64,000 nt of DNA, from NCBI GenBank assembly GCA_040377305.1, contig JBEIPA010000022.1, positions 1-64,000 of the forward strand, in the 5' to 3' direction. The translations under genes and the position numbers were made by a program. The notes beneath the pieces are model-generated. The model was not told the DNA's origin. It searched no databases and worked only from the letters and a program-made list of their open reading frames with translations. The DNA comes from Flavobacteriales bacterium. Its GTDB lineage: Bacteria > Bacteroidota > Bacteroidia > Palsa-965. This document shows positions 9,607 through 56,500 of this stretch, in pieces; the first letter of the stretch is position 1, and each line of letters begins with the position of its first letter.

Positions 9607-11103
9607 ATGACACCAGGCCTCATCTTACTCTGCGTAGGAATCTACACGCTCATGCTCTTCGCCCTCACGTGGTGGACATCCCGCGGAGCAAGCAATGAAT
9701 CGTATTTCGTCGGTGATCGAAAATCGAGTTGGTACCTCGTTGCCTACGGAATGATCGGTGCTTCACTTTCCGGAGTAACCTTCATGTCCGTTCCCGGAAA
9801 CGTGGGTAAAGTCAACTTCTTTTACTTTCAGGTTGTACTCGGATATTTCGTCGGTTACTTCATTATCGCGAAAGTATTGCTGCCTCTGTATTACAAAATG
9901 CAGCTCACTTCGATTTACACGTATCTCGAGAAACGACTTGGAGTTCACGCTTACAAATCAGGAGCATTCTTCTTTTTAGTCTCTCGCATTTTTGGCGCAG
10001 CGTGCAGAATGTACATTGTTGTGCTCGTACTTCAGAAGTTCATCTTCGAGGCATGGGATGTTCCGTTTGCAGTTACTGCCGGAATTTTCGTCCTGCTCAT
10101 TTTAGCCTACACGTACAAAGGCGGAGTGAAAACGATCATCTGGACAGACACGTTGCAAACTACTTTCATGTTGTTGTCGTTGGTGCTGAGCGTTTACCTG
10201 ATTTCCGATCACCTGGAAATTGACGGACTGGTTAACCACATTTTTACGGATGAGCATTCCCAGATTTTCAACTGGGACTGGAAATCAAGTTACTTCTTTC
10301 CGAAAGCATTCTTTGGTGGAATGTTCGTCGCCATTACGATGACGGGCATGGATCAGGAGATGATGCAGAAGAACATCTCGGTGAAAACGCTTGGCGCATC
10401 GCAGAAGAATATGATCTCATTTAGCACCGTAATGGTAATCGTTAATCTGCTGTTCCTTGGCTTGGGTGTTCTGATCTGGGATTACGTGGCGGCGAATCCT
10501 GAAATGCAAGCTGCACTTGCGGATGGCTCCATGTCTCGCGACGAACTGTTTCCGACCATCGCACTCGGCAAGCTCGGAACCGTTTGCGGATTGTTCTTCA
10601 TTATCGGTTTGATTTCAGCAGCGTATCCAAGTGCAGACGGAGCATTGACTGCGCTCACGGCTTCATTCTGTATCGACTTTCTCGGATTCAATCACATTGA
10701 AAAAGGTTGGACCGAAGAACGCAAGGTGCGCATTCGAAAGCTTGTGCACATTGGATTTTCGGTTTTACTCTTTCTGACATTGCTTGTGCTGAAAGCCATA
10801 AACGATGCTGCCATTATTGATCTCATTCTTTTCCTGGCTGCAATCACGTATGGACCTTTGCTCGGATTATTCGCGTTCGGTATCTTCATGAAGAACAGAA
10901 CAGTTTCCGGTTGGCCGATCGTGGCAATTTGTCTCACAGCACCTGCAATCTGTTTTTTCCTAAACTACTTCGCAGGACCTCCGGATGCAATCAACTACTT
11001 CGGTGGTTATCGTTTCGGCAACGAATTGCTGATCATCAACGGCGGAATTGTTTTCCTGAGTCTGCTTGCAATCTCAAAACGCGCACCTTCCAATGAGCAA
11101 TAA
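9607..11103 (+). CDS. Sodium:solute symporter (SSS family)
   Basis: Many TM helices; GASLSGVTFMSVPG, SIYTYLEKR, GGVKTIIWTDTLQ and TGMDQEMMQK motifs. Confidence 0.93.
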   Translation: MTPGLILLCVGIYTLMLFALTWWTSRGASNESYFVGDRKSSWYLVAYGMIGASLSGVTFMSVPGNVGKVNFFYFQVVLGYFVGYFIIAKVLLPLYYKMQLTSIYTYLEKRLGVHAYKSGAFFFLVSRIFGAACRMYIVVLVLQKFIFEAWDVPFAVTAGIFVLLILAYTYKGGVKTIIWTDTLQTTFMLLSLVLSVYLISDHLEIDGLVNHIFTDEHSQIFNWDWKSSYFFPKAFFGGMFVAITMTGMDQEMMQKNISVKTLGASQKNMISFSTVMVIVNLLFLGLGVLIWDYVAANPEMQAALADGSMSRDELFPTIALGKLGTVCGLFFIIGLISAAYPSADGALTALTASFCIDFLGFNHIEKGWTEERKVRIRKLVHIGFSVLLFLTLLVLKAINDAAIIDLILFLAAITYGPLLGLFAFGIFMKNRTVSGWPIVAICLTAPAICFFLNYFAGPPDAINYFGGYRFGNELLIINGGIVFLSLLAISKRAPSNEQ

Positions 11104-19406: not shown

Positions 19407-19496
19407 GGTGAGGTGGGTGAGAGGCCGATACCAGTAGTTTGCTAAACTGCCGTACGATGTAAAGTTGTACCGAGGGTTCGAATCCCTCCCTCACCG
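19407..19496 (+). tRNA. tRNA-Ser(GCT)
   Basis: Acceptor stem GGTGAGG/CCTCACC, discriminator G, anticodon arm GTAGT-TTGCTAA-ACTGC, long variable arm, T arm GAGGG-TTCGAAT-CCCTC; CCA not encoded. Confidence 0.97.
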
Positions 19497-19640
19497 CAAC
19501 ACAATTCTCTAATGCCGCTAGCGATAGCGGCATTTTTTATTTGTTCGGACGGAGTCCGAACTTGTTCGAGCGAACGTTCGAGCAAATAAAAAATGAGAGC
19601 CTGCTTTTTCGCAGACGGCGGCATTAGAGAATTGTGTTGC
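19496..19640. repeat. 145-bp nested inverted-repeat element abutting the tRNA 3' end
   Basis: 23-bp perfect IR 19496-19518 / 19618-19640; inner CATTTTTTATTTG / CAAATAAAAAATG. Confidence 0.8.
19511..19540 (+). terminator. Intrinsic terminator after tRNA-Ser
   Basis: AATGCCGCTA-GCGA-TAGCGGCATT hairpin followed by a T tract. Confidence 0.75.
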
Positions 19641-19735
19641 AGGACCACCATCCGGGATCAACGCAGTTAATCCCTCTTACCTTGAACCTGGAACCTGAAA
19701 CTGGGAACCTAGAACTGGGAACCGTATATTTGATC

Positions 19736-20500
19736 ATGCGTATCACATTCCTCGGCACCGGTACTTCAATGGGCGTTCCTGTTATCGGATGCGGCTGTGA
19801 AGTGTGTACGTCGACAGATCCACAAGACAATCGCTTACGTTGTTCTGTTCTCGTTGAACACAACAACCGGAAAATTGTAATCGACACCGGACCCGATTTT
19901 CGCCAGCAGATTCTTCGCGTAGGAGTGAAGCATCTCGACGCTGTTGTGTTTACACACGAGCACAAAGATCACATGGCCGGACTGGATGAAGTCCGTGCCT
20001 TCAATTTCTTCAACCAGGGCAAAGAAGTTCCCGTGTATGCAACTGAACATGTGCAACGCGCAATTCGCAGAGAGTACGCGTACATTTTCGAAACGCCTGC
20101 TTATCCCGGGATTCCGAAAATCGATATTCGCACCATAGACGTTGCACCATTCAACGCAGAAGGAATCGAGCTGATACCGATCAAAGTATATCACCACTTA
20201 CTTCCCGTTCTCGGTTTTCGAATGGGTGGATTCGTTTACATCACCGATGCGAATCGAATTGACGAAGAAGAAAGAAAAAAAGTCCGCGGCTGCGATGTAC
20301 TCGTGTTAAACGCATTGCGTCGCGAGCCGCACATTTCTCATTTCACACTGCAGGAAGCAATCGATCTGGTTGCCGATCTCAAACCGAAGCAAGCGTACTT
20401 CACGCACATCAGTCACCAGATGGGAAAACACGAAGATGTGGAAGCTGAGTTGCCGGAGAATATCCGGGTTGCGTATGATGGAATGCAAGTAAATCTTTAA
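19736..20500 (+). CDS. MBL-fold metallo-hydrolase (PhnP-like phosphodiesterase family)
   Basis: FLGTGTSMGVP.IGC.C..C, IDTGPDFRQQ, THEHKDH, YITDA and THISH motifs; ATG 19736. Confidence 0.93.
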   Translation: MRITFLGTGTSMGVPVIGCGCEVCTSTDPQDNRLRCSVLVEHNNRKIVIDTGPDFRQQILRVGVKHLDAVVFTHEHKDHMAGLDEVRAFNFFNQGKEVPVYATEHVQRAIRREYAYIFETPAYPGIPKIDIRTIDVAPFNAEGIELIPIKVYHHLLPVLGFRMGGFVYITDANRIDEEERKKVRGCDVLVLNALRREPHISHFTLQEAIDLVADLKPKQAYFTHISHQMGKHEDVEAELPENIRVAYDGMQVNL

Positions 20501-20515
20501 TTAATCCATATAAAA

Positions 20516-23500
20516 GTGAAGAGGATGTTAAGACAGTTTTTTTTGGTTATAACGGCAATTGTCATTGGTTCAGTTCAAATGAATGCGCAAGCACAGTTTT
20601 GGGGAACTACTTCGAAAGGCGGGGAGTACGGTGCCGGAACAATATTCAGAACGGATGGGACAGGAAACAATCCTGTCGTGTCGCATTCGTTTTTCCAGAT
20701 CGAAGGTCATCAGCCTCATTATGCTAAACTGTTAGAAGGTACAGATGGAAAGTTGTACGGCGTCACCAACTACAAAGGGAAATTTGATTTGGGTGTACTC
20801 TATCAGTATGATCCCGTAACCGGGGTATATGTAAACAAATTTGACTTCGACGGTGTGTTGAACGGGGCTCATCCTCAAGGTTCGTTGATGCAGGCTACGG
20901 ATGGTTTAATTTATGGTATGACTTGGGGCGGCGGAAGTTTTGGATTAGGCGTCCTTTTTCGTTTTGACCCTGTAACCGGAATCTTCACAAAACTTATTGA
21001 TTTCAGTGGAACGGCAAATGGTGCAAATCCAAGAGGCCACTTGCTACAGGCTTCCGATGGAATGATGTATGGCGTAACTCAGGGTGGGGGGACAGTAGGC
21101 GCAGGCGTTCTGTTCAGATTTAATCCAGTTACCGCAGTATTGACTGTCCAAACGAATTTTATGGGAATTTCAAATGGATCTCAACCACTCAGCGGATTGA
21201 TTCAGGCTCTCGATGGAATGTTATACGGTGTTACATGCAACGGAGGCACCTACAACGACGGAGTGCTTTTTCAGTTTAATCCCGTTACCAGCGTGTATTT
21301 TAAGATGAGAGATTTTGCGGCACCAAGTCATGGAGAGGCACCCCAGGCTACGTTGGTACAGCTGCCCAATGGAAGGTTTTACGGAACGGCAACAACGGGT
21401 GGCGGATTGGGCTCAGGTTGTATCTATGAATTTAGTCTTGTAGATTCTTCTATCACTATCAGGGCAAACTTCACGAGCGGGTTGAACGGAAGTGGTCCTA
21501 AAACAGCTTTGCTTTTAGCAAGCGATGGTATGATGTATGGAACTGCCGTTTCGGGAGGCTTAGGGGCACAGGGAACACTCTTCCGTTTTGACCCGACGAC
21601 ATTTGCACTTACAAACTTGAGGAACTTCACTACCGGTGCATCGGGTTGCGGACCGTATGGATACTTGATGCAGGCAACAAATGGATTGTTGTATGGACTC
21701 ACAGTCGATGGAGGAAGCGTACTCAATCATAATGGAGTGATGTATTCTTATAATATCTCAACTTCGACGTACACCAAAATCCTGGATTTCGGCCAGGCTC
21801 CCACCGGCAATTCTCCGGAGCGTGGATTGATGACAGCGTCGAACGGAAAATTTTATGGAATGGCGCGACTTGGCGGAAGGTTCTATAATCACGGTGTAAT
21901 TTATGAGTACGATGCAGCCACAAATGTATTTGATACCATCAAAAATTTTGACGATGTGCTTTCGGGCAGGGATCCCCAAGGTCTGCTAACAGAATCGTAC
22001 GACGGATTTTTGTACGGTGTAACGCGACAAGGAGGTGTAAATAGTTTTGGTGTTTTGTTTCAGATTGATCCGGTAACGCACGCATTCGTCAAGAAACACG
22101 ACTTTTCAGCTTCAACGGGCATTGCACCTTCTGGTTCTCTTGTAGTAGGTGCGGATAACTTGCTTTACGGTGTTGCGGGATCCGGAGGTGCAAACAATCA
22201 AGGGGCTCTTTTCCGTTATGATCCGGCTACTTCAGTTTATTCGCTTATATACAGTTTCAGTACTGCAGTATCAGGCCGCGACCCTTTGGGTTCATTGTGT
22301 CTCGCACCAGACGGATTTTTTTATGGAGCAACCAATGGCGGTGGGGCCAATGGCCTCGGAACAATTTACCGCTTCAATCCGATAACACTTGCGCTTACAG
22401 TAGTGTACCATTTCTCTACCGGTTCAGGTGGATATGGGGAAGTAGATCATTTGATCCCATCCCAAAATGGGAAAATGTACGGAATGACTAATTCGGGCGG
22501 ACTGAACAACATGGGTGTCATTTTTAGTTTTAATCCTGTAACGCTTACCTACACTCCGGAATTCCATTTTGACGGCGTTGCTCATGGTGCTTATCCTAAT
22601 GGAAGTTTAATGGAAGCTTCGGACAACAATCTTTACGGAATGACCGCGCGCGGAGGAACCTTGGACTACGGAACGATGTTCAGGTTTGACCCTGTGTCCG
22701 GAATCTGCACGAGATTAACTGACTTCACTGGTCTTAACGGACAATCACCCCGGTTCTCTTCGCTGCTGGAGGCTCCGGTTAATATTCAGTTGAGTGTTAG
22801 TGATACATTTTATTGTCCGGGCGATACATTCACTATTGGTTATACATTATCCGGCGCATTTAATAGTGGTAACGTCTTCACGGCGCAGTTATCGGATGGC
22901 AACGGTTCGTTCTTCCAACCAATTACAATCGGAGCAATCACATCCTCTGTTCCCGGAAGCCTCTTGTGTACGTTGCCTGCGAATAGCCTGCACGGAACGG
23001 GTTATCGAATCCGGATTTCATCGTCGACACCTTTACTGAGTGGTGCCGATAACGGATTTGATCTTACCATTTCAAATCCGTTGACAGTAACGGTATCTGA
23101 TTCAGTAATTTGTTTAGGCGATACTGCCGGAATATTTGCTTCGGGAATGGATAGCTACTCCTGGTTACCCATAGCATCAACTTCAGATTCGGTGTTCGTT
23201 ATGCCGTCAGTTTACACGCAATACACTTTAACTGCGACGGATTCTTCAACGGGATGCGTATTGCACGATACTGTTGGTATTGTAGTCAATCAGCTGCCTA
23301 ATGTTATGGTAGCTGCTAACGACACCACGTTATGTATTTATGACAGCGTGCTTCTGGTTGGGTCAGGAGCAGACACTTATTTGTGGCCCGCATTTTCTTT
23401 TTCAGGCGATTCGCTGGTGGATGCGCCTGTTGTTACAACAGTTTATCTGCTTCTGGGCACAGATACCAACGGTTGCGTCGATTCTGCGCAGATCTCGGTA

Positions 23501-24988
23501 CAGATTCTATCACTTCCGGTGATCAATGTTTCTGCTAGTGACACTTCGCTTTGCCAGGGCCAATCTGTAACTCTCTTTGCATCCGGTGGTCACGACTATT
23601 CTTGGTTACCAGGGAATGACACAACAACGCAAGTGACCGATACATTGTTAACGACTGTGACTTATTCAGTGAGTGGGTCTGATACCATCACGGGTTGTAG
23701 TAGTCTGTCGGTGCTTACAATCGTAGTTTTCAGTATTCCACAGCTAAGCGCAACAATTGATAATGTTGCAGGATGCAACCAGTCTAATGGCAGTCTGACC
23801 GGTGCTGTAATTAACGGAACACCTCCTTATTCAACTGAATGGACTCCAGGTAACGTTACAACGTTGAACTATTCAGGAATCGCTTTTGGAAGTTACGTTT
23901 TGGTAGTGAATGATTCTGTTGGCTGTACAGATACACTTACGATTGCATTAGGGGATTCCTGTGCATTTGTCTGGCCGGGTGATGCGAATGAAGACGGGAC
24001 TGCAGACAATCTCGATATTCTTGCCATTGGAATTGCGAACGATTCAACAGGTGTTGCGCGCGTGAATCCAACCACAGTTTGGATTGGACAAGATGCTATT
24101 GACTGGAATCAGAATTTCGCTTCTGGTGTTAATTTCAAATATGCCGATTGTGATGGAAACGGATTGGTAGAACCTGCCGACACAACTGCGGTTATTCTTA
24201 ATTATGGTCTTACGCACATCATGCGAAGTAGTAATCCAGCGTGGCAGGTGAGCGCACCGGAACTTTCTGTAGTGATTTCTGATGATACAATCGGTTCCGG
24301 AATGGCAGCATTTATGGACATATACCTGGGATCTGCGTCGACAGTCAGCGATAGCACGTACGGTGTGGCATTCACGATCAACTTCGATCCATATCTTATT
24401 GATCAAACTTCACTGAATATCGACATGTCGGGTTCATGGATAGATTCACAAGGCAACATGATTGGTGTCCTACTTAATTCAACGCAGTTTCCCGGAACTG
24501 CACAGATCGGAATTACGCGACTGAATCACACAGATACTTCTGGCTATGGATTTCTATGTAGGATTTATTTCGAAACCACGGATTCATTAACAGGCACGGG
24601 GACAAGTGCACTTTCGTTTATCAGCCTGAGCAATCCAGTATTGCAGAGTAGTTCTCAGATTTTGCTGCCGGTTAATGCGGCACTTGATTCGATGTTTATT
24701 ATCGATAGCTTAGTCTATGTTGGTGTTCCTGAAACGAACTTGCCCTCAGTAAACATCTATCCTAACCCTACATCTGGAGAATCATTCGTGGTTTTCCCTT
24801 CGGAATACAATGGACAGCAGCTACAGCTCAAGATATATGATCCTTCAGGTCGGGTTGTATTTGCGAATTCAGTGATTGCTGGTCAATCCAACGTGCTTTT
24901 CGCTGATGGATTTGCTTCAGGTATTTATCTCGTAGAAGCTGTTTTTTCAGACAATACACGGGCAGTTGTGCGATGGATCATCGAATAA
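20516..24988 (+). CDS. Large T9SS cargo: ~14 Gloeo/Verruco-type tandem repeats, Ig-like stalk, dockerin-like and cohesin-like modules, type A CTD
   Basis: Repeated G..P...L....DG.LYG.T..GG...G.LF.FDP units of ~52 aa; WPGDANEDG...YADCDGNG EF-hand-like pair; IYPNPTSG...GIYLVE CTD. Confidence 0.85.
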   Translation: MKRMLRQFFLVITAIVIGSVQMNAQAQFWGTTSKGGEYGAGTIFRTDGTGNNPVVSHSFFQIEGHQPHYAKLLEGTDGKLYGVTNYKGKFDLGVLYQYDPVTGVYVNKFDFDGVLNGAHPQGSLMQATDGLIYGMTWGGGSFGLGVLFRFDPVTGIFTKLIDFSGTANGANPRGHLLQASDGMMYGVTQGGGTVGAGVLFRFNPVTAVLTVQTNFMGISNGSQPLSGLIQALDGMLYGVTCNGGTYNDGVLFQFNPVTSVYFKMRDFAAPSHGEAPQATLVQLPNGRFYGTATTGGGLGSGCIYEFSLVDSSITIRANFTSGLNGSGPKTALLLASDGMMYGTAVSGGLGAQGTLFRFDPTTFALTNLRNFTTGASGCGPYGYLMQATNGLLYGLTVDGGSVLNHNGVMYSYNISTSTYTKILDFGQAPTGNSPERGLMTASNGKFYGMARLGGRFYNHGVIYEYDAATNVFDTIKNFDDVLSGRDPQGLLTESYDGFLYGVTRQGGVNSFGVLFQIDPVTHAFVKKHDFSASTGIAPSGSLVVGADNLLYGVAGSGGANNQGALFRYDPATSVYSLIYSFSTAVSGRDPLGSLCLAPDGFFYGATNGGGANGLGTIYRFNPITLALTVVYHFSTGSGGYGEVDHLIPSQNGKMYGMTNSGGLNNMGVIFSFNPVTLTYTPEFHFDGVAHGAYPNGSLMEASDNNLYGMTARGGTLDYGTMFRFDPVSGICTRLTDFTGLNGQSPRFSSLLEAPVNIQLSVSDTFYCPGDTFTIGYTLSGAFNSGNVFTAQLSDGNGSFFQPITIGAITSSVPGSLLCTLPANSLHGTGYRIRISSSTPLLSGADNGFDLTISNPLTVTVSDSVICLGDTAGIFASGMDSYSWLPIASTSDSVFVMPSVYTQYTLTATDSSTGCVLHDTVGIVVNQLPNVMVAANDTTLCIYDSVLLVGSGADTYLWPAFSFSGDSLVDAPVVTTVYLLLGTDTNGCVDSAQISVQILSLPVINVSASDTSLCQGQSVTLFASGGHDYSWLPGNDTTTQVTDTLLTTVTYSVSGSDTITGCSSLSVLTIVVFSIPQLSATIDNVAGCNQSNGSLTGAVINGTPPYSTEWTPGNVTTLNYSGIAFGSYVLVVNDSVGCTDTLTIALGDSCAFVWPGDANEDGTADNLDILAIGIANDSTGVARVNPTTVWIGQDAIDWNQNFASGVNFKYADCDGNGLVEPADTTAVILNYGLTHIMRSSNPAWQVSAPELSVVISDDTIGSGMAAFMDIYLGSASTVSDSTYGVAFTINFDPYLIDQTSLNIDMSGSWIDSQGNMIGVLLNSTQFPGTAQIGITRLNHTDTSGYGFLCRIYFETTDSLTGTGTSALSFISLSNPVLQSSSQILLPVNAALDSMFIIDSLVYVGVPETNLPSVNIYPNPTSGESFVVFPSEYNGQQLQLKIYDPSGRVVFANSVIAGQSNVLFADGFASGIYLVEAVFSDNTRAVVRWIIE

Positions 24989-25005
24989 CAATAGTAGAAG
25001 TAAAG

Positions 25006-25266
25006 CACCGATGCGAATCGAATTGACGAGGAAGAAAGAAAAAAGTTCGCGGCTGCGATGTACTCGTGTTAAACGCATTGCGCCGCGAGCCTCACATTTC
25101 TCATTTCACACTGCAGGAAGCAATCGATCTTGTGGCCGATCTCAAACCGAAGCAAGCGTACTTCACGCACATCAGTCACCAGATGGGAAAACATGCCGAC
25201 GTTTCAAAAGAACTTCCTTCCAATATTTTCCTTGCACACGATGGATTAACCATTGAAGTGAACTGA
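25006..25266 (+). pseudogene. Second copy of the 3' third of the MBL hydrolase gene
   Basis: 25006-25193 aligns to 20242-20430 with six substitutions and a 1-bp deletion in an A tract, then continues to an alternative C-terminus; no 5' part. Confidence 0.92.
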
Positions 25267-25286
25267 AAACTGAAAATCAGAAGGTG

Positions 25287-25667
25287 TTAAAGTACCTTGG
25301 ACAGAAATTCGTTCAGTTCATGACGGATTGCATTGAAATTCGTCTCGAAAGAGTTCATCGATTCGCGCATCTTAGGATGATCATTCACCTTACGAACGCC
25401 TGCTGAAACCGGATTTTCTTCTACGCGGTTTTGCAGGTAATTGTCATGGTCTTTTACCGTGTGGCGTAATTCGTCAATGTTGTTCTTCTGAACAATCATT
25501 GAATTCTGAAAATGCTCTACCTGTGCAAGAGTTTCCTTTGCTGTGTTTTTTGATGCAACATCTGCAATCCTCTTATTCATGATGTTAATTTCATCCGCAT
25601 AAAAGTCAAGTCGCTTCTGCCAATCGGTATGTTCTGCGTGCAATTCGTCGATAGTCTTGGTGTCCAT
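25287..25667 (-). CDS. Hypothetical all-helical protein, 126 aa
   Basis: Clean ORF with amphipathic helices and several His residues. Confidence 0.75.
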   Translation of the reverse strand: MDTKTIDELHAEHTDWQKRLDFYADEINIMNKRIADVASKNTAKETLAQVEHFQNSMIVQKNNIDELRHTVKDHDNYLQNRVEENPVSAGVRKVNDHPKMRESMNSFETNFNAIRHELNEFLSKVL

Positions 25668-25779
25668 AGTACCTTTTTTGATTTGTTTATAGTGCTAAAG
25701 TGCAGACAATGTCGCACGACGAACATGACGGAAATCCTGACTAATCCTGATTCTTGTCACAAGCCGGAAATGTTGGGGC

Positions 25780-25810
25780 AAAAAAAATCCCCTCGCAAAG
25801 CGAAGGGATT
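25780..25810 (-). terminator. Intrinsic terminator after ssb
   Basis: ATCCC-CTCGC...GCGAAGGGAT stem with an A8 tract on + (U tract on -). Confidence 0.7.
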
Positions 25811-25837
25811 CCAAAACCATGACACTTGACTACGTTT

Positions 25838-26170
25838 CTAAGCGGCTTCGTCCATCAGCACAATGTCGTTCACCACGATTTCTGTGTTGGTGCGTTTCTG
25901 TCCGAGTTTGTCAACCCATGAACGCTGCATGAGTCGTCCGCTTACACCTACTTTTCTTCCTTTCTGAAGATATTGTTCAACCACGTCCGCTTGTTTTTCC
26001 CACGCAACCATGTTAAACCAGTGCACGTTGCTTTGTTTTTGTCCTTCCATGCTGGTTGTGTACGAAACGTGAGCGAGTGAGAACCGCGCTACTTTCTTTC
26101 CTGTTGTTGTTGCTTTTACTTCCGGATTCATTCCGAGTTTCCCGATGATCTGTACGTTGTTCGCTTGCAT
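25838..26170 (-). CDS. ssb: Single-stranded DNA-binding protein (short, no long acidic tail)
   Basis: NNVQIIGKLGMNPE, VARFSLA, HWFNMVAWEKQA and LQKGRKVGVSGRL OB-fold motifs. Confidence 0.92.
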   Translation of the reverse strand: MQANNVQIIGKLGMNPEVKATTTGKKVARFSLAHVSYTTSMEGQKQSNVHWFNMVAWEKQADVVEQYLQKGRKVGVSGRLMQRSWVDKLGQKRTNTEIVVNDIVLMDEAA

Positions 26171-26293
26171 CTTGATAAATTTTAAAATGGTTTAAAAATG
26201 AAATTGTTACTGTCGCAGCCTTCCTGCCCGCCGTTTGGCATTCAGGCGGGGTTGACTTGAACGACGGTGCAAAGATGTGGCGGAAGATTCGAG

Positions 26294-26354
26294 CTAGTCG
26301 GGTGTTAAACGTTTGTAGTCGGATGTAAATGTTTGTAAACGTTTGTAAACGGAT
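26294..26354 (-). promoter_or_regulatory. 10-bp-period direct-repeat array upstream of ssb
   Basis: Minus strand TCCGTTTACA AACGTTTACA AACATTTACA TCCGACTACA AACGTTTAAC ACCCGACTAG, just upstream of a CATCTTTG -7-like box. Confidence 0.6.
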
Positions 26355-26461
26355 ATAGTGCTGAAATACAGTGTTATATGGACTATTAGTAATTTCTTCA
26401 AAATTTGAATAATCACCTTTTACTGAGTTTCTCTGCGCAAAATGTCGGCCGGAATCCGCAA

Positions 26462-26574
26462 AAAAACACCCTGCAGGAGTTAAACGCTTGCAGGGTTAAG
26501 TAAGAAAAACACCCTGCAGGAGTTAAACGCTTGCAGGGTTAAGTGAGAAAAACACCCTGCAGGAGTTAAACGCT
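26462..26574. repeat. Tandem 43-bp REP-like units (2.6 copies)
   Basis: AAAAACACCCTGCAGGAGTTAAACGCTTGCAGGGTTAAGTRAG at 26462, 26505 and 26548 (truncated); each unit is a hairpin. Confidence 0.9.
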
Positions 26575-26595
26575 GGGTTATAAAATCCTGTTGCA

Positions 26596-36525: not shown

Positions 36526-36552
36526 CAGAAACTGAATTCCTAAATCAGTTTA

Positions 36553-38472
36553 TTACTGTACCACAACACGTGTAGTTGCAGTTGATTCACCAGTTGTAAC
36601 AGTGATCAGATAAACACCAGCTTCGAGGTTGTATGTGCTCATTTGGATGTTGTTTGAACCTGAGTTCATGGTGTATTGCTGTGATGAAACTGTTTCACCA
36701 AGCATGTTCACCAGGTTAACAGTTACTTTCTCGCTGTTATTAAGTGTGATATTTACATTCAACACATCAGTCGCCGGGTTCGGATATGCTCCGATTGATC
36801 CGAATGATGCTGCAGCTTCTTTCACGCCAACAGGCAATGTAAATTCTGATTCATCAAAATCAACATCACTGATGTAGTAGTGATCGAATGGAGTAGTGGT
36901 GTTGTGCGAATTGTCGCGATCCACTGAGTTAGTTGATGGAACACTATATGTGCTGCCACTAATCAATGCAAGATTGGAGTTGTAGTGCCAGTATGCATCA
37001 TCGGAGAATGTGAACTGTTTCTTCGCTGTCTTCATCATAGTAGTCCAGTCAACACCCACACCATACATGTTCGGGTATGCGTTCTCTCCACCTGCAATTG
37101 CAGGATCAGTATCAACCCACATGTAGAAGATATGATCGCGGCCTGGGCTTACAGAAGCCTGCAAACGCGCATCCAGATCATAAGCAGCAGAACCATCAGA
37201 GAATGGCGACTGTGTAGTTGTTGCACTAGTGAGCAAGGAATCAATCAGGACAGCGTCCCAGGTGTTTGCTCCTGTTGTGTAAACATCATAGATGTAATGT
37301 GTAGTAACACCGTTCGGAACCGCGAAGAAGCTCAGTGAATCGTTGTTATCAGAGAAACCGCTTTCAATCGTGCAGATGATGTGAAGCTGGTTATTGTGAT
37401 CTACAACAATATCCGAACCATTGCTCTGAGAGAACCATGGCTTAACGTCGCCATTCGAATTATAGGCGAATAGGTGGTCGTTGATTACCGGAATTGAAGT
37501 GAAGTCGAATGGAGCCCAGGCTGCTGACCAGTTGTCGCCACCATCTGTTGTGCTGTAAACAATAGGGTTGAAGCTGCGTGTTGGAATTGTAGAAGCAGCT
37601 GCTTGTACTCCGAAGAATACACAGTAACCATTCTGCCCGTTTGCGGAGAAGGAGAGGTGCGTGTTCTGGTAAGCGTCGGTTGCGCCTGCACCATCTGTGT
37701 GGAATGTAGGCTTAATCGAATCCATAGTCCACGTAACCTGAGTTCCATCCCAGCTTCCTTTGTTTAAAGAAGCACCACGGTAGGCACTGCCTGCAACGTC
37801 ATCGTCGGCGAGAAGTGCACCTGTTACCCATACTGTGCTGTCGTTGTATGAAGCCATGTCAATACGTGGGAATGAGTTCAGACTTGCTGATGCAACGCCC
37901 GTACCTGTGTTTCCGAAATTCGCTGCAATCGGAGCAGCCTGAAGGTAATAACCACCCCAGCCAGATCCAGGAGTATATGGACCTGCAATTGCCCACCATG
38001 CATTTGAAATGTTGGTGTTTCCAACTCCGTTAAGAATCGCTCCGGAAGGGTAACGGAACAATTGAACTCCATCGTTGTCGAAGTACATAGAATCCCATGA
38101 AACTCCATCATTCGATGTCCATGTGCCCTGGATGTAACCGTTATTAACGCCGGCTGGAGACCAGTCTGTTGAAATACGGTGCGTGAACAGTGCAATTCCA
38201 AGAGCCTGATTCGACGTCATACAATTCGACTGCGATACAAGCAACGTTAAAGCATTGCGTGAACTCGAAAAGTGAGTTCCTGTCATTTGTGCAGATGGGT
38301 TCTGGCTATTACGCTGTGTGTGCGCATCAGCGTAGAAACTGCTTTGTGCAGGATCTTCAGAACGACTGCCATCAAGTTTTAAATCGGGTTTGAGCGGCGT
38401 CAGCTGGGGCGACTGTGCGAATGCCACAAATGCTGAAGTGATGCCGATTGTTAAGAGTAATCCTTTTTTCAT
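36553..38472 (-). CDS. T9SS type A cargo, 639 aa, paralog 2
   Basis: Signal peptide AFA|Q; Asp boxes (SNDGVSW, STTDGGDNW); AYPNPATD...AGVYLITV...TRVVVQ CTD. Confidence 0.85.
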   Translation of the reverse strand: MKKGLLLTIGITSAFVAFAQSPQLTPLKPDLKLDGSRSEDPAQSSFYADAHTQRNSQNPSAQMTGTHFSSSRNALTLLVSQSNCMTSNQALGIALFTHRISTDWSPAGVNNGYIQGTWTSNDGVSWDSMYFDNDGVQLFRYPSGAILNGVGNTNISNAWWAIAGPYTPGSGWGGYYLQAAPIAANFGNTGTGVASASLNSFPRIDMASYNDSTVWVTGALLADDDVAGSAYRGASLNKGSWDGTQVTWTMDSIKPTFHTDGAGATDAYQNTHLSFSANGQNGYCVFFGVQAAASTIPTRSFNPIVYSTTDGGDNWSAAWAPFDFTSIPVINDHLFAYNSNGDVKPWFSQSNGSDIVVDHNNQLHIICTIESGFSDNNDSLSFFAVPNGVTTHYIYDVYTTGANTWDAVLIDSLLTSATTTQSPFSDGSAAYDLDARLQASVSPGRDHIFYMWVDTDPAIAGGENAYPNMYGVGVDWTTMMKTAKKQFTFSDDAYWHYNSNLALISGSTYSVPSTNSVDRDNSHNTTTPFDHYYISDVDFDESEFTLPVGVKEAAASFGSIGAYPNPATDVLNVNITLNNSEKVTVNLVNMLGETVSSQQYTMNSGSNNIQMSTYNLEAGVYLITVTTGESTATTRVVVQ

Positions 38473-38500
38473 GTCGTTTTCGTTGATGAGACTCTAAGTT

Positions 38501-38538
38501 AAAAAGAAACCCCGACAATCCGTAGATGTCGGGGTTCT
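38501..38538 (-). terminator. Intrinsic terminator of 38558-40477
   Basis: AACCCCGACA...TGTCGGGGTT stem with A tract on +. Confidence 0.7.
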
Positions 38539-38557
38539 GTATTGTTAACAGGAACGA

Positions 38558-40477
38558 TTACTGAACTACAACGCGTGTAGTAGCAGTAGAAGTACCAGTT
38601 GATACTGTGATCAGGTAAACACCCGCTTCCAGGTTGTACGTGCTCATTGAAAGGTTGTTAACACCTGCATTGAGGCTGTGCTGCTGTGAAGAAACTGTTT
38701 CTCCAAGAACGTTTGTCATCGCAACAGTTACTTTTTCGTTGTTGTTCAAAGTAACGTTGAGGTTCAACACGTCAGTAGCAGGGTTTGGATAAGCCGCAAC
38801 TGTTCCGAAAGAAGCTACTGCCTCACCGATTCCGATAGCGAGCGTGAACTCAGACTCATCGAAAGTTACGTTATCAAGGTAGTAGTGATCGAACGTAGTA
38901 AGTGTGTTGTGTGAGTTGTCGCGATCTGTAGAGTTAGATGAAGGCACTTTGTAAGTGCTTCCGCTCACAAGCGCAAGGTTTGAGTTGTAGTGCCAGTATG
39001 CATCATCAGAGAATGTAAACTGTTTAGTAGCAGTCTTCGTCTGAGCTGTCCAGTCGATACCAACACCAAAAAGGTTAGGGTATGCGTTTTCTCCACCAGC
39101 GATTGCAGGATCTGTATCAGCCCAGAGGTAGAAAATGTGGTCACGGCTAGGGCTAACAGAAGCCTGAATACGTGCATCAAGGTCATAAGCAGCAGAACCG
39201 TCAGAGAAAGGAGACTGGGTTGTTGTTGCGCTTGTCTTCAAAGAATCAATAAGCGTTCCAGACCATGAGTTAGTTGCTTGTGCAGTTGTGTGTACATCCC
39301 AGATGTAGTGAACGTTGTCGTTACGTGTCCAGGTGTATCCGAGTGAATCATCATCATCAGAAGAACCCCACTCAACTGTGCAGATGATGTGAAGGTTACC
39401 GTTGTTGTCAACTACCATGTCAGAACCATTGCTCATAGAGAACCAAGGCTTAACAGAACCGCCAACAGCAGCAATTGCAATTGGAGCTGAAGCAAATACT
39501 GTAGAGTAATCGTAAGGAGCCCAAACTGAAGACCAGGTTGTACCACCGTCAGTTGTTGAGTAAACGATAGGCTGGAAACCGCGAGTCTCAGGAGTTGTAG
39601 CTGAAGCCTGAACACCGAAGAACACTGCGTAACCAACTTGTCCGTTTGCAGAGAATGCAAGGTGAGTCATTGTATAGCAATCAGTTGCACCTGCACCATC
39701 AAGGTGGAAGCTAGGCTTGATCGAATCCCATGTCCATGAAACACTTGTTCCGTTCCATTTTCCACGGTTAAGAACAGTACCACGGTATGCGCTTCCGCCA
39801 ACATCATCATCAGCAAGAAGTTCGCCTGTTACCCATACTGTAGAATCGCTATAAGAAGCCATATCGATACGTGGGAACGAGTTAACGTTGTTAGAATAAG
39901 TTCCGGTTCCTGTGTTACCAACGTTCGGTGCGAACATTGCGTCATTCAGGAAATAACCATCCCAGGTAGATCCGCTCGTGTAAGGACCACCAACAACCAT
40001 CGCAGCATTAGCAACGTTTGTGTTGCCAGTACCGTTCAGAATTGCACCAGAAGGGTAACGGAAAAGTTCTGCTCCGTTGTTATCCCAGTACATTGAATCC
40101 CACTGCGTGCCATTCCACCAGCTAACTTCAATATATCCGCTGTTTACACCAGCAACTGACCAATCAGCTGACATACGGTGTGTGAAAGCTGCAATTCCCA
40201 ATGCCTGGTTCGCAGTCATACAGTTCGACTGAGAAACAAGAAGCGTAAGCGCATTGTATGAGCTAGAGAACATCTGACCAGAGATCTGTGTAGTTGGACC
40301 TCCACCGTTACGCTGATTAGAAGCTTCTGCGTAGAAGTTTACTTCTTGTTCTGTGTCAATTTGAGATTTGCTCGTAAGCGTCAGGTCGGGCTTCTGCACA
40401 CCATTTGCTTTCGGTGCCTGAGCGACCATAGCAAACGAAGCGGAGACTCCGATCACAAACAGTAATCCTTTTTTCAT
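38558..40477 (-). CDS. T9SS type A cargo, 639 aa, paralog 1
   Basis: Collinear with 36553-38472 over its full length; same CTD. Confidence 0.85.
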   Translation of the reverse strand: MKKGLLFVIGVSASFAMVAQAPKANGVQKPDLTLTSKSQIDTEQEVNFYAEASNQRNGGGPTTQISGQMFSSSYNALTLLVSQSNCMTANQALGIAAFTHRMSADWSVAGVNSGYIEVSWWNGTQWDSMYWDNNGAELFRYPSGAILNGTGNTNVANAAMVVGGPYTSGSTWDGYFLNDAMFAPNVGNTGTGTYSNNVNSFPRIDMASYSDSTVWVTGELLADDDVGGSAYRGTVLNRGKWNGTSVSWTWDSIKPSFHLDGAGATDCYTMTHLAFSANGQVGYAVFFGVQASATTPETRGFQPIVYSTTDGGTTWSSVWAPYDYSTVFASAPIAIAAVGGSVKPWFSMSNGSDMVVDNNGNLHIICTVEWGSSDDDDSLGYTWTRNDNVHYIWDVHTTAQATNSWSGTLIDSLKTSATTTQSPFSDGSAAYDLDARIQASVSPSRDHIFYLWADTDPAIAGGENAYPNLFGVGIDWTAQTKTATKQFTFSDDAYWHYNSNLALVSGSTYKVPSSNSTDRDNSHNTLTTFDHYYLDNVTFDESEFTLAIGIGEAVASFGTVAAYPNPATDVLNLNVTLNNNEKVTVAMTNVLGETVSSQQHSLNAGVNNLSMSTYNLEAGVYLITVSTGTSTATTRVVVQ

Positions 40478-42820: not shown

Positions 42821-42831
42821 GTGCCCTCAGT

Positions 42832-42946
42832 TCAACGGTCCAAGGGTTAAGCCCTTGGAGGGTATGTCCCAAATCAACCCTGCAAGCGTTTAACTCCTGC
42901 AGGGTGTCATCAACTCAACAGTCCAAGGGTTAAGCCCTTGGAGGGT
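42832..42946. repeat. BIME-like A-B-A mosaic of REP hairpins
   Basis: TCAACRGTCCAAGGGTTAAGCCCTTGGAGGGT at 42832 and 42915 flank 42876-42907, the reverse complement of the core of the 43-bp unit at 26462. Confidence 0.88.
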
Positions 42947-43174
42947 TACGCGCGCGCACGTAATAACAACTATTTATTCAACCTCGACAACCGGTATTTA
43001 ATTCAGGGTATCCGGATGCGTTGAAAAAAAAGATGACCTACGGTCATATCGTTAATAGTGACCTAAAATATTTACAAAAGACTTGCAGGTTTGAGAAATA
43101 TTTTAATTTCGTATTAAACAACTATATATTTTGATTAAAGTTTAACTGTATTCACATCTATCAAGGAAAGATTT

Positions 43175-53588: not shown

Positions 53589-56500
53589 TCAAATTCTAAC
53601 CCCAACAATCGTCACATCATCCACCTGTTCCAAATCGCCTCTCCAGTTTTCGAATGTTTCCAGAATGATTTTCTTCTGATCATCCATTGACTCATGCGAA
53701 ATTGAAACGAGCAATTCCTTCAACGGCTTATACTTGAATTTTTTGCCTTTAGGACCACCGAATTGATCGGGCATACCGTCGGTCAGTGCGTAAACGCAGT
53801 CGCCTTTCTGCAGTTGGAATTCCTGCTCAGTGAAAGGAACGTTGTCTTTGTCATGTTTTCCAACCGGCATCTTATCTGCCAGCAATTCGATCATTTCCTT
53901 GTTGCGAACGATCCATACCGGATTATTTGCTCCGGCGAAAGTGAGTCGCTTATTTGCAAAGTCAAAACTGATGAGGCTGCAATCCATTCCGTCTTTCCCG
54001 CCGTCGGTGCTTCCATCTTTCGAAAGGGTATTTATTATCCGGCTTCTCGTAAAGTTCAGAATATGGGCTGGTGAAGTCTGATGCTCAAAATCTACCGCTT
54101 TCTCGAGGCAGGAAATATTCAACATGCTCATGATTGCTCCCGGAACGCCGTGACCTGTGCTATCCGCGGTTACTAAAGCAAATTGATTGTTGGATAGGAG
54201 AGAAGCCCAGTAGAAATCACCACTCACAATATCTTTTGGACGGAAGAATACGAAATGTTCAGGCAAATGAGTCCGCAATACATTATCGCTTGCCAGTAAC
54301 GCACGCTGAATTCGTTGCGCGTAATTGATGCTATCGATAATGTCCTTCTGTTTTTCTTCTACAAGATGTTTTTGTTCTACAACTTCCGCGGTTCTTTCTT
54401 CTACGGTTTGTTCCAGTTCCTTTTGACGAACACGAAGTTGTCTCGTTCTGAATCTGAAGAATCCAACCACCGAAGCGATGATGAATAACACAGTGCCACT
54501 TCTGAACCAGGTTGTTTCCCACCACGGCGGGCGAACTTCGAATGCATATTCAAAAGGTTCACTCCACACACCACTTTGATTCATCGCTTTTACTTTGAAC
54601 ACGTATTCACCGGGAGGAACGTTTCCGTAAGGTGCTTCTGTGCGTTCAGTAATTGAACTCCAGAATTCGTCAAGGTTTTCGAGCTTGTATTGGTACTTGA
54701 TGTGGTTACGGCTTTGCATGTGTACGCCGATGTAGTTGAACGTAATGTTGCTATTGTCGTACGGTAAGCTTAAATGTTGCGGCAAATTATACCAAGGAGA
54801 GATACTGTCAAATTCAATTCCACTCAGGAGAATGCCGTTCGAAAGAATGGAGTCTTTGGAAACACCACTAATAGTTTCGTTCCCTGTTGAGTCCATCGTA
54901 AGTGCCCCAAGACTAGTCCATGCAATGTTTTCTCCATAGAGTTTTAGACTTGAAACATTTACCGAAGGCGCAATTAAATCTGCTTGATCACCTTGTGGAT
55001 CGTAGCAAGTAAGAAAATCTGTTCCCCACCAAATTCGTCCCTTGCTATCTTGTAAAACAGAATTGCGACGACAGTTTAAACCTAAAAAACCATCATTATA
55101 ACCGTAATTATAAAAGAGTGCCTCTTTTATGGGATTGTAATTCTCATTTTTTTCAGCTAACCTTATTAGCTGTACCCGACCAACTTTACTTAATCCTTTT
55201 CGTGTACCGAACCAAATATTTCCATCTACATCCTGCACCATGTTTAGTACCGCATTATTTGACAGGCCTTCTTTCTCTGTAAAATTGGTAAAGGATTTCC
55301 CATCGTAACGGCACACGCCCCCGCCATTAGTGCCGAACCAAATCCCGACTTCTCCAGTCGGGACGGTTTTATCTTCTAAACCACAATAAACAAAATTATT
55401 TGACAGGCCTTCTTCCTCCGTAAAATTGGTAAATGATTTCCCATCGTAGCGAGAGACTCCGCCCTGAGTGCCGAACCAAAAGTTTCCGGTTTTATCTTCC
55501 AAAATACTCCAAACAGTATTATTTGACAAACCTTCTTTCTCTGTAAACTTCGTGAAGGATTTCCCATCGTAACGACACACGCCTCCGCCGTAAGTGCCGA
55601 ACCAGAGGTTTCCCGTTTTATCTTCTAAAATACTCGAAACAAAATTATCTGTCAGACCTTCTTTATCTGTAAAGTTCGTGAACGATTTCCCATCGTAACG
55701 ACACACGCCTCCGCCATTAGTGCCGAACCAAAGGTTTCCCGTTTTATCTTGTAAAATACTCAAAACAAAATTATTTGTCAGACCTTCTTTATCTGTAAAG
55801 TTCGTGAAGGACTTCCCATCGTAACGGCACACGCCCCCGCCATAAGTGCCGAACCAAAGGTTTCCGGTTTTATCTTCTAGCATACTCACAACAAGATTAT
55901 TGCCCAGCCCTTCATTCTCGGTAATATTGGTAAAGGATTTCCCATCGTAGCGAGAGACGCCGCTTCCAGCTGTGCCGAACCAAAGGTTTCCGGTTTTATC
56001 TTCTAAAATACTCTGAACAAGATTATTGCCCAGCCCTTCATTATCGGTAAAATTGGTAAAGGATTTAACAAGTTTTCCATCTTCTCTTTTAAGGTCCTGT
56101 TGATCGCTTAAAGGAATTTTTTCGCCGCGTTCAATCGCTTCCACGCGATTCCCATCGTAACGGCATATGCCCCCGCCATATGTGCCAAACCAAAGGTTTC
56201 CGATTTTATCTTCTACAATTGCACTCACAAAATTATTTGACAGACCCTCTTTCTGTGTAAAGTTCGCGAAGGATTCCCCATCGTAACGGCACACGCCCCC
56301 GCCATAAGTGCTGAACCAAAGGTTTCCCGTTTTATCTTCTAAAATTGAGGCAACAACATTATTTGACAGGCCTTCTTTCTCGGTAAAATTGGTAAATGAT
56401 TTCCCGTCGTAGCGACAGGCCCCGCTATCAGTGCCGAACCAAAGGTTTCCCGTTTTATCTTCTAAAATACTCCACACAACATTATTTGACAGGCCTTGTT

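Follow-up and report, generated by a model that had tools for sequence, protein, structure and literature searches.

Integrase-driven islands that target protein-coding genes restore the 3' end of the gene they enter, such that a replacement end lies on one side of the island and the displaced end on the other. The insertions with long target duplication described by Furuta, Abe and Kobayashi (2010; PMC2853133) are bounded by repeats that, in the examples set out there, measure 45-47 bp or ~390-420 bp and are not always identical. Of 60 recombinants obtained in E. coli, 56 had foreign DNA enclosed by a duplicated stretch of lacZ, and the duplications, which spanned 109-950 bp in the 14 that were sequenced, were ascribed in that report to trimming, recircularisation and a single crossover (PMC3240628). 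Here we analyse a 64,000-nucleotide window of a Flavobacteriales genome (contig JBEIPA010000022.1), in which the duplicated end of an MBL-fold hydrolase gene surrounds a gene for a large surface protein (Table 1). The locus is best described as an ordinary scar of an already known kind of insertion, and not as a new mobile element or mechanism.

Table 1. Features of the duplicated hydrolase gene end and its surroundings (window coordinates).
Feature	Position	Strand	Basis or remark
tRNA-Ser(GCT)	19407..19497	+	upstream, outside the duplication; no repeat of the tRNA near the cargo
PhnP-like MBL-fold hydrolase, 254 aa, intact host gene	19736..20500	+	PF12706, 130.6 bits
Repeat copy 1, codons 169-232, within the working MBL gene	20242..20430	+	alleles common to relatives
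Tail A (HEDVEAEL...QVNL), expressed C-terminus, cargo-linked	20431..20500	+	sequence comparison
Cargo, 1487-1490-aa GloVer-repeat protein with T9SS sorting domain	20516..24988	+	ORF and domain searches
Spacer, 17 bp, from cargo stop to non-homologous joint (25005/25006)	24989..25005	+	spanned by a 4677-nt contig, depth 14.4, run X1
Repeat copy 2, orphan without start, six synonymous changes and a 1-bp frameshift	25006..25193	+	BLASTN, alignment
Tail B (HADVSKEL...IEVN), silent alternative C-terminus with own stop	25194..25266	+	related strain (run X2) has 25114-25319, one letter different
126-aa hypothetical gene, convergent	25287..25667	-	adjoins the MBL gene in five genomes of the genus and in a metagenome contig
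ssb, conserved right flank of the variable slot	25838..26170	-	domain searches, synteny

The hydrolase scored 300.8 bits against PRK02113, under the cut-off of 386, and its relatives in the PDB are 6b9v, 3py5 and 3g1p; identity as a class B beta-lactamase was ruled out (class B core score 23.5 against a cut-off of 100). BLASTN aligned the two copies of the gene end, whose recurrence had been spotted in the earlier note, over 189 columns with 96.3% identity (E 3e-82), and found just these two copies across the 5.18-Mb assembly. The differences are also those first listed, namely six substitutions (20266, 20284, 20320, 20329, 20368 and 20371), each at a synonymous third position, and a 1-bp deletion in an A tract at ~20275; the longest stretch without a mismatch was computed at 59 bp. 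The probability that six random substitutions in the repeat would all be synonymous is 1e-4 to 5e-4. Because all six are silent, both copies appear to have diverged as working genes, and we regard both as alleles that evolved in working form. Similarity between the copies sets in abruptly at 20242/25006 and the flanks that precede it are unrelated, which points to one homologous anchor and one non-homologous joint. That the orphan might be a decayed full-length paralog, a doubt that the earlier note had raised against its own reading, was ruled out, as the similarity starts abruptly at 25006 and a paralog is present in none of the family genomes.

Beyond the repeat the copies do run, as had been claimed, into different yet homologous C-termini: tail A (HEDVEAELPENIRVAYDGMQVNL) and tail B (HADVSKELPSNIFLAHDGLTIEVN) share 10 of 22 residues and are 47% identical in nucleotides. 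Among 117 homologs (6786 pairs) the 27 pairs that are at least 90% alike in the repeat segment all have tails at least 82% alike, and thus the step to 47% observed here reflects a true breakpoint. The junction of a 189-bp near-identical segment of the same species with a very distant 70-bp tail points to two events, of which the one behind the tail swap was most likely separate and older. The 3.2% divergence of the copies lies at the upper end of that between this genome and a related strain (31/2649 letters; 0-3.3% per piece). Comparison with homologs places all six differences on copy 2. Indeed, in 24 comparisons with the four closest homologs the copy 1 allele was found in 16 and the copy 2 allele in 3, and copy 1 has a tree branch length of 0. 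Because all six differences sit on one copy, a mid-repeat crossover is excluded, provided that they arose in one lineage.

The insert between the copies comprises 4575 bp and a single ORF. The earlier description of a lone 1490-aa T9SS cargo was right in that the ORF at 20516/20525-24988 is the only long one, and needs amending in its length, which is 1490 aa only from a GTG and 1487 aa, the length of the protein database entry, from an ATG. The protein contains 14 GloVer repeats (TIGR03803) and a T9SS C-terminal domain. Its gene starts 15-24 bp downstream of the MBL stop, and co-transcription with the MBL gene is therefore likely. There are 720 homologs of the cargo; the 119 others among the 120 matches listed are 33-46% identical. 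GloVer genes occur in 15 of 34 family genomes, and at none of their 19 loci does an MBL gene lie within 1.5 kb. A donor was found neither among the cargo homologs in the matches listed nor at the GloVer loci of the 34 family genomes. The composition of the cargo is not foreign (GC 45.7% versus 45.1% for the genome), its codon usage is ordinary (rank 72 of 151 large genes) and it holds no replication gene.

None of 29 other loci has the cargo after the MBL gene (flank up to 1.5 kb); the other species have a single MBL copy and lack the cargo, and the gene that follows the MBL gene varies across the genus (ssb, the 126-aa gene or others). From these sequences the cargo appears to be a newcomer to the slot between the MBL gene and ssb. 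A search of the 34 family genomes with the C-terminal 99 aa of the hydrolase returned one match each in 30 and none in 4, so that none contains a second MBL fragment. Nor was a second MBL match, or a self-repeat touching the MBL gene, found in the best 80 of 166 metagenome loci, 34 of which have at least 5 kb downstream; very short fragments could be missed in these genomes and loci. The proposal that the gene is an insertion hotspot is thus not supported by these 34 family genomes and 80 loci. Among the papers listed, judged by title or the beginning of the abstract, none concerned this gene as an insertion target.

The locus is best read as two haplotypes of the same species, brought together by a single crossover in homologous sequence and a single non-homologous joint. 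More specifically, the chances are a little better than even that it is the scar of a one-sided recombination, in which DNA from another strain of the same species, comprising gene end and cargo, was anchored on its left by a homologous crossover and attached on its right, at 25005/25006, by a non-homologous joint. The two haplotypes, with their different tails of 23-24 aa, would go back to an older exchange with a distant relative, whose in-register crossover lay at the conserved HQMGKH codons (20430/25193). A cargo-free cell would subsequently have received a fragment of the cargo haplotype, which integrated either after trimming and recircularisation, through one crossover within or ahead of the first 24 bp of the repeat, or alternatively as a linear piece via homology-facilitated illegitimate recombination (HFIR). 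The displaced end of the other allele would have lost its start and would since have gained one frameshift. Such a route would need no dedicated enzyme, as the ordinary recombination of the cell would suffice; ComEC and DprA are present in this genome, and likewise in 10 and 11, respectively, of 14 control genomes. The earlier idea that the cargo brought its own replacement 3' end survives in part, in that homology-anchored integration fits best, but it is too simple, since the end has two parts.

Loss of the unit would probably be a rare event, brought about by homologous recombination between the copies, and the unit would not be self-mobile. The predicted outcome of such an event, deletion of the cargo with a swap of the C-terminus, was borne out by computation for a crossover within the final 155 bp of the repeat, which leaves an unbroken enzyme of 255 aa that bears the other tail, but a crossover in the first 33 bp yields a frameshifted 190-aa stub. 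An excisable or mobile island, as also proposed, finds no support in the depth of the cargo, which equals that of its flanks, in the 59-bp limit of identity between the copies, in the lack of an integrase or in any shared motif.

The earlier note inferred a direction, with cargo and gene end as the newcomer. A known direction is not supported, because the cargo-side copy has the ancestral alleles and a phylogeny of both C-termini, now built from 72 columns (AU tests 0.24, 0.44 and 0.26), rejects neither tail placement (p-AU 0.24 and 0.44). It should be acknowledged that ancestral alleles beside the cargo and derived ones on the orphan count against the one-sided scar set out above, and that an incoming orphan fits them equally. 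Of the four closest homologs, three are also slightly nearer to tail A than to tail B (shared residues 14 versus 11, 13 versus 11, 13 versus 11 and 12 versus 14), and a joint 17 bp past the cargo stop is improbable for a random fragment end. One might contend, therefore, that the MBL gene with tail A and the cargo were resident, and that the newcomer consisted of the orphan end, tail B and the 126-aa gene, entering through homology on the ssb side and an illegitimate joint after the cargo stop. Such an event would place all derived alleles on the orphan and would account both for a joint just past the cargo stop and for variable orphan lengths, as at the GH3 locus considered below; in addition, the three closest genomes have ssb directly after the MBL gene with no match to the 126-aa gene, and tail B finds its best residue matches in distant company (16/22 with a genome of another genus). 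Against this, the order MBL gene, 126-aa gene, ssb is old, as in five genus genomes and a 78%-identical metagenome contig the 126-aa gene adjoins the MBL gene (itself 74% identical over the C-terminal 46 aa), and the tail tree again rejects neither placement. We consider this reversed course of events unlikely, though it deserves to be taken seriously.

A scan for gene-end repeats revealed six further gene-end duplications in this genome, and in 7 of 7 the host gene is intact with the fragment outside it; relatives carry some of these scars at the same genes. At a GH3 locus three species have the same toxin-antitoxin cargo followed by orphans of 74, 107 and 215 bp, which begin 8, 11 and 0 bp, respectively, past the same toxin stop, and two of the three orphans are nearer to their own host gene than to the genes of relatives. 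The joint follows the cargo stop by 17 bp here and, where four other cases are co-oriented, by 0-41 bp, while positions no more than 45 bp past a stop make up 3.4% of the genome. As such a position is rare for a random fragment end, later trimming or selection must be added to the one-sided scar. Joints that hug cargo stop codons, together with the GH3 orphans, are what would be expected if the present fragment is the remnant of a longer duplication, through a whole-gene tandem or an integrase island, that was later trimmed by deletions sparing the cargo. This is doubtful, however, as the orphan is free of neutral decay save for one indel, with 0 non-synonymous changes in 189 bp, no integrase remnant was found on the contig and two MBL copies occur in no family genome. 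The seven scars in one genome, and GH3 joints 0-11 bp from the cargo stop in three species, are also the basis for a bolder view, which we think improbable, that in this Bacteroidota lineage genes are repeatedly added behind working gene ends, through an integrase-free route of unusual precision. If a dedicated process, and not later trimming, set the joints at stop codons, the mechanism of gene capture would be an undescribed one and the orphan a reserve C-terminus.

A non-autonomous, site-specific unit that has an att core close to 20242 and is moved in trans by an integrase or HUH enzyme from another locus is very unlikely. The genome does contain seven matches to the tyrosine-integrase family PF00589, the replaced gene end resembles that left by islands that restore their target, and a weak palindrome, CATC-ACC-GATG, overlaps 20242. 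None of the seven matches, however, is on this 81.5-kb contig, in agreement with the claim that the unit is integrase-less (the genome-wide search covered PF00589, and serine recombinases and DDE enzymes were sought by a Pfam/NCBIfam scan of the cargo and its neighbours). The palindrome is commonplace, since 7.5% of random windows and 141/724 windows of the same gene fold equally well, and a hairpin or REP-like joint was rejected, as nine joints examined shared no hairpin above background and no common motif by eye. Moreover, no second case was found in the 34 genomes and 80 loci, and the contigs of run X1 show neither excess nor deficit of cargo depth relative to the flanks, although these are contig depths and contigs drop rare variants.

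An assembly artefact, in which two strains, or a chromosome and a 4.76-kb circle, were merged through the repeat, is hardly credible: the repeat does collapse to one 146-nt piece in the run contigs, so that the contig graph alone permits a chromosome plus circle, and run X1, as the probable source of the assembly, is non-independent, but one of its contigs links tail A to copy 2 across the cargo, spanning the joint at single-copy depth (left 14.3 and 14.4, cargo 14.4, right 15.0, collapsed repeat 23.2), the longest identical run is shorter than a read and the cargo lacks a replication gene. The mixing of strains that the earlier note had feared is therefore unlikely. Run X2, from a related strain, covers tail B and the right flank and stops short of spanning the joint; it has no cover on this cargo, nor on the C56 cargo and what follows it, which was not counted as evidence because its cover is patchy, at a depth of 2-4, and none of its contigs bridges the site. 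The organism was absent from runs X3 and X4.

The locus offers a clean natural example of how a 4.5-kb surface-protein gene can be added without a mobile element and without breaking the gene ahead of it. The more useful lead may be the seven scars and the repeated GH3/toxin-antitoxin scar, which bear on whether joints were set at insertion or trimmed later. Like integrase-driven islands, the locus has a replacement gene end on one side and the displaced end on the other, but it lacks a contig integrase, att-like symmetry and recurrence at the MBL gene. The variable slot between conserved MBL and ssb genes across species of the genus recalls minimal mobile elements as defined in PMC3787668, although these would swap by two homologous crossovers in the flanks, from which no duplication is expected, in contrast to the 189 bp duplicated here. 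In the T6SS effector-immunity/Rhs arrays portrayed in PMC5361080, incoming DNA anchored upstream similarly shoves the old 3' end downstream, where the orphan can recombine back; displacement there is repeated and selected (toxin, immunity), whereas the present case is a single event at a conserved hydrolase gene, in which neither tail brings a known benefit. Single-crossover integration of recircularised DNA and HFIR, as presented in PMC3240628, share with this locus one homologous and one non-homologous joint, the absence of an integrase and a gene-end duplication around foreign DNA, but that system is an E. coli laboratory construct and this a natural locus, and classical HFIR usually deletes recipient DNA where here it is duplicated. 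Events of this kind would be marked by 3-10 bp of microhomology at the joint and by dependence on RecA. The likeness to insertion with long target duplication, in the terms given in PMC2853133, extends to an insert of <20 kb with no mobility gene, a direct repeat of >30 bp that is unique in the genome and a target gene left intact. The cases there concern restriction-modification genes and are set against an empty-site genome, whereas the cargo-free loci here belong to other species, the repeat ends 70 bp before the stop and a distant homologous tail supplies that stop. What is shared is the architecture of the class, and this study extends an architecture described for restriction-modification genes to a GloVer/T9SS cargo in Bacteroidota.

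A PhnP-like MBL-fold hydrolase gene (254 aa, intact) has its end duplicated around a single cargo gene, and the locus is a genuine recombination scar, without an integrase and of an already known kind. Copy 1, which comprises codons 169-232 of this host gene, and the orphan copy 2, which lacks a start codon, align over 189 columns at 96.3% identity (E 3e-82), with no third copy of the 189-bp repeat across the 60-contig, 5.18-Mb assembly. The hydrolase was assigned from a PF12706 match and PDB relatives, the nearest NCBIfam model (PRK02113) scoring below cut-off. As the earlier note described, the copies differ by six substitutions, every one a synonymous third position, and by one A missing from a tract of copy 2 near 20275; past 20430/25193 they continue in frame into homologous tails with a nucleotide identity of only 47% and with 10 of 22 residues in common. 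That observation is confirmed, and the interpretation built on it is partly supported.

Coordinates of features (L, extracted loci; G000, source genome, with its contigs C; plain numbers, window positions)
Feature	Location	Details
Imperfect inverted repeat	19496-19640	~145 bp; directly after tRNA-Ser(GCT), before MBL gene; self-match E 1e-10
MBL host gene	19736-20500
Copy 1; tail A	20242-20430; 20431-20500
Cargo	20516-24988
Copy 2; tail B	25006-25193; 25194-25266
126-aa gene	25287-25667 (-)
ssb	25838-26170 (-)
Tandem 41-43-bp palindromic repeats	26462-26590; 42821-42954	one family, two intergenic sites, opposite orientation
Tandem 639-aa paralogs	36552-40477	spaced 2005 bp, 70-76% alike
Internal repeats of 1234-aa gene	53589-57293	~ten, 123-126 bp
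GH3 loci with toxin-antitoxin pair	L187:1875-2585 (G000:C4:82374-83084); L194:2256-3241; L195:2070-2806; L196
SprB/CHU_C scar	L189:4003-7623 (G000:C56:11502-15122)	46-bp end around 1149-aa T9SS cargo (DUF7619); near twin of MBL case
Further gene-end scars	L188:2597-3300; L185:2037-2661; L186:2790-4368; L190 (G000:C6:61609-76767)
Mur ligase scar		85 bp; RelE/ParE cargo
YceG/MltG scar		50 bp; relative G015 has own orphan
Glycosyltransferase 5' end scar		110 bp; decayed orphan in relative G007
207-bp end scar		around 15-kb block with no integrase, as assessed on translations alone
Intergenic direct repeat	G000:C60:3420-3530, 10979-11089 (L191)	111 bp, 89% identical, 7.6 kb apart; encloses several genes, two of which encode paralogous, secreted-looking proteins

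Under neutral decay six of six synonymous changes would have a probability of 1e-4 to 5e-4, and both copies therefore diverged while working genes; the orphan, carrying one indel, fell silent recently. Since their divergence of 3.2% sits at the top of the range between this genome and a related strain in sequencing run X2 (31/2649 letters, 0-3.3% per piece), the copies look like same-species alleles. The sole copy 2 difference of that strain (25154, Gln to Arg) lies on one contig of depth 2.2, and may reflect an error or mean that this strain, too, has an orphan copy. The tails cannot be same-species alleles, because among 6786 pairs from 117 homologs the tails agree to 82% or more in all 27 pairs that agree to 90% or more in the repeat segment. 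Judged from sequence, 20430/25193 is a breakpoint in its own right, in register, with a distant relative as partner. The single 'replacement 3' end' proposed earlier comprises two layers, a near-identical repeat and a distant tail with its own breakpoint. The structure, joint and allelic pattern are observed; what happened, in which sequence and how the DNA got in is inference, and we lean towards the following: an older tail exchange would have created two haplotypes, and DNA of the cargo haplotype would then have entered a cargo-free cell and integrated by a single homologous crossover plus a non-homologous joint (25005/25006), displacing the resident gene end downstream.

One-sided recombination between two alleles, whichever its direction, is probable; the reverse of the event favoured here is, by itself, unlikely. 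That the cargo side is the newcomer, as the earlier note proposed, may be argued from its absence behind the MBL gene at all 29 other genome loci compared (flank up to 1.5 kb), from the 33-46% identity of the cargo to the listed matches, with no close homolog among them, and from the old gene order MBL, 126-aa gene, ssb, the first two being neighbours in five genomes of the genus and on one metagenome contig. Against this, 16 of 24 comparisons with the four closest homologs agree with copy 1 and three with copy 2, the tree assigns every change to copy 2, the three closest genomes are without the 126-aa gene, and tail A is slightly nearer than tail B to three of the four closest homologs. The phylogeny of both C-terminal alleles suggested earlier was built, and the tail tree rejects neither placement.

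The gene-end duplication pattern is common in the lineage. Of 237 repeats with both copies on one contig, a genome-wide scan retained seven, the MBL case included, as low-copy duplications of gene ends. Six concern a 3' end and have the orphan downstream; in the seventh, which concerns a 5' end, it lies upstream, and the host gene is therefore intact in all seven. Hosts include YceG/MltG, Mur ligase, GH3 fusion, glycosyltransferase and SprB/CHU_C proteins, and cargo includes ParE/RelE toxin-antitoxin pairs and a further T9SS protein (1149 aa). Codon changes over the five countable duplications (26 synonymous, 18 non-synonymous) are less clean than in the MBL case. One contig of run X1, the probable source of the assembly, crosses the SprB/CHU_C scar at depth 15; in G015 different genes follow that host. 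Relatives have orphans at GH3, MltG and glycosyltransferase genes. The GH3 orphans of G007 and G013 resemble the host gene of their own genome (88% and 84%) more than those of the others (72-79%), whereas that of the source genome shows no preference for its own (74-76%); in G015 the GH3 cargo is present and the orphan absent. The ParE/RelE pair lies behind the GH3/beta-lactamase-domain gene in four species and is missing there in G041 and G042; orphans in three species (74, 215 and 107 bp) begin 8, 0 and 11 bp past the toxin stop.

In five co-oriented single-operon cases the joint falls 0-41 bp past the cargo stop, and in three others the closest boundary of a cargo gene is 149-369 bp away. 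Because random fragment ends do not explain joints so close to stops (positions up to 45 bp past a stop make up only 3.4% of the genome, counted in the source genome only), trimming or selection is needed. That the MBL locus began as a larger duplication or an island and was trimmed afterwards is distinctly unlikely, and a lineage-wide, precise gene-capture route is doubtful to a similar degree. A site-specific unit mobilised in trans is more improbable still, there being no significant palindrome at the joint and none common to nine joints. An assembly artefact is scarcely credible: the contig graph by itself would also fit a chromosome and a circle in an exact 1:1 ratio, a very unlikely combination, but in run X1, which is not independent evidence, one contig spans tail A, cargo, joint and the start of copy 2 (20401-25077) at depth 14.4, equal to its flanks (14.4 over 19467-20314, 15.0 over 25164-26495; collapsed repeat piece, 23.2), and the longest identical run is only 59 bp, so that reads can phase the copies. 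The cargo depth is neither lowered, which argues against the strain mixing considered earlier, nor raised, which argues against an extra circle beside the integrated copy; rare excision is invisible in contigs.

The copies enclose one gene (1487-1490 aa, 14 GloVer repeats and a T9SS sorting domain), and all seven PF00589 matches of the genome lie off this contig, in agreement with the earlier claim of a lone T9SS cargo without an integrase. Cargo homologs with a taxon in their name point to Bacteroidota, and no foreign composition was found in the cargo. As TAnnTTTG, which we take to be the Bacteroidota promoter element, occurs just upstream of the MBL start (19725) and not ahead of the cargo, the latter is likely transcribed from the MBL promoter. 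The motif (19725-19738) stops 3 bp short of the MBL ATG, and the MBL mRNA would be nearly leaderless. RecA recombination could delete the cargo at low frequency. The earlier prediction that this also swaps the C-terminus holds in silico for crossovers within the last 155 bp of the repeat (255-aa enzyme with tail B), but not within the first 33 bp, which yield a frameshifted 190-aa stub. The proposed protein-coding hotspot finds no support: the C-terminal 99 residues matched once in 30 of the 34 genomes of the family and twice in none (tallies that include the unpublished genome G012, used only here), and no second MBL fragment occurs at 80 metagenome loci, 34 of them with at least 5 kb downstream, although very short orphans could escape. 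The MBL-ssb slot, whose content differs between species, is an ordinary variable locus.

Our literature search found neither a Bacteroidota case nor this MBL hydrolase gene as integration target. The architecture corresponds to the 'insertion with long target duplication' of PMC2853133, in which repeats at start or stop sites leave the target intact; the MBL locus departs from that study's class only in the kind of cargo, and no empty site turned up within the species. The same anchor-and-displace model is put forward for orphan 3' ends in PMC5361080, and E. coli experiments gave gene-end duplications of 109-950 bp flanking foreign DNA in PMC3240628. According to PMC2884548, 10-18% of variable segments have flanking repeats, mostly under 30 bp, and thus 189 bp is rather long, but not exceptional.
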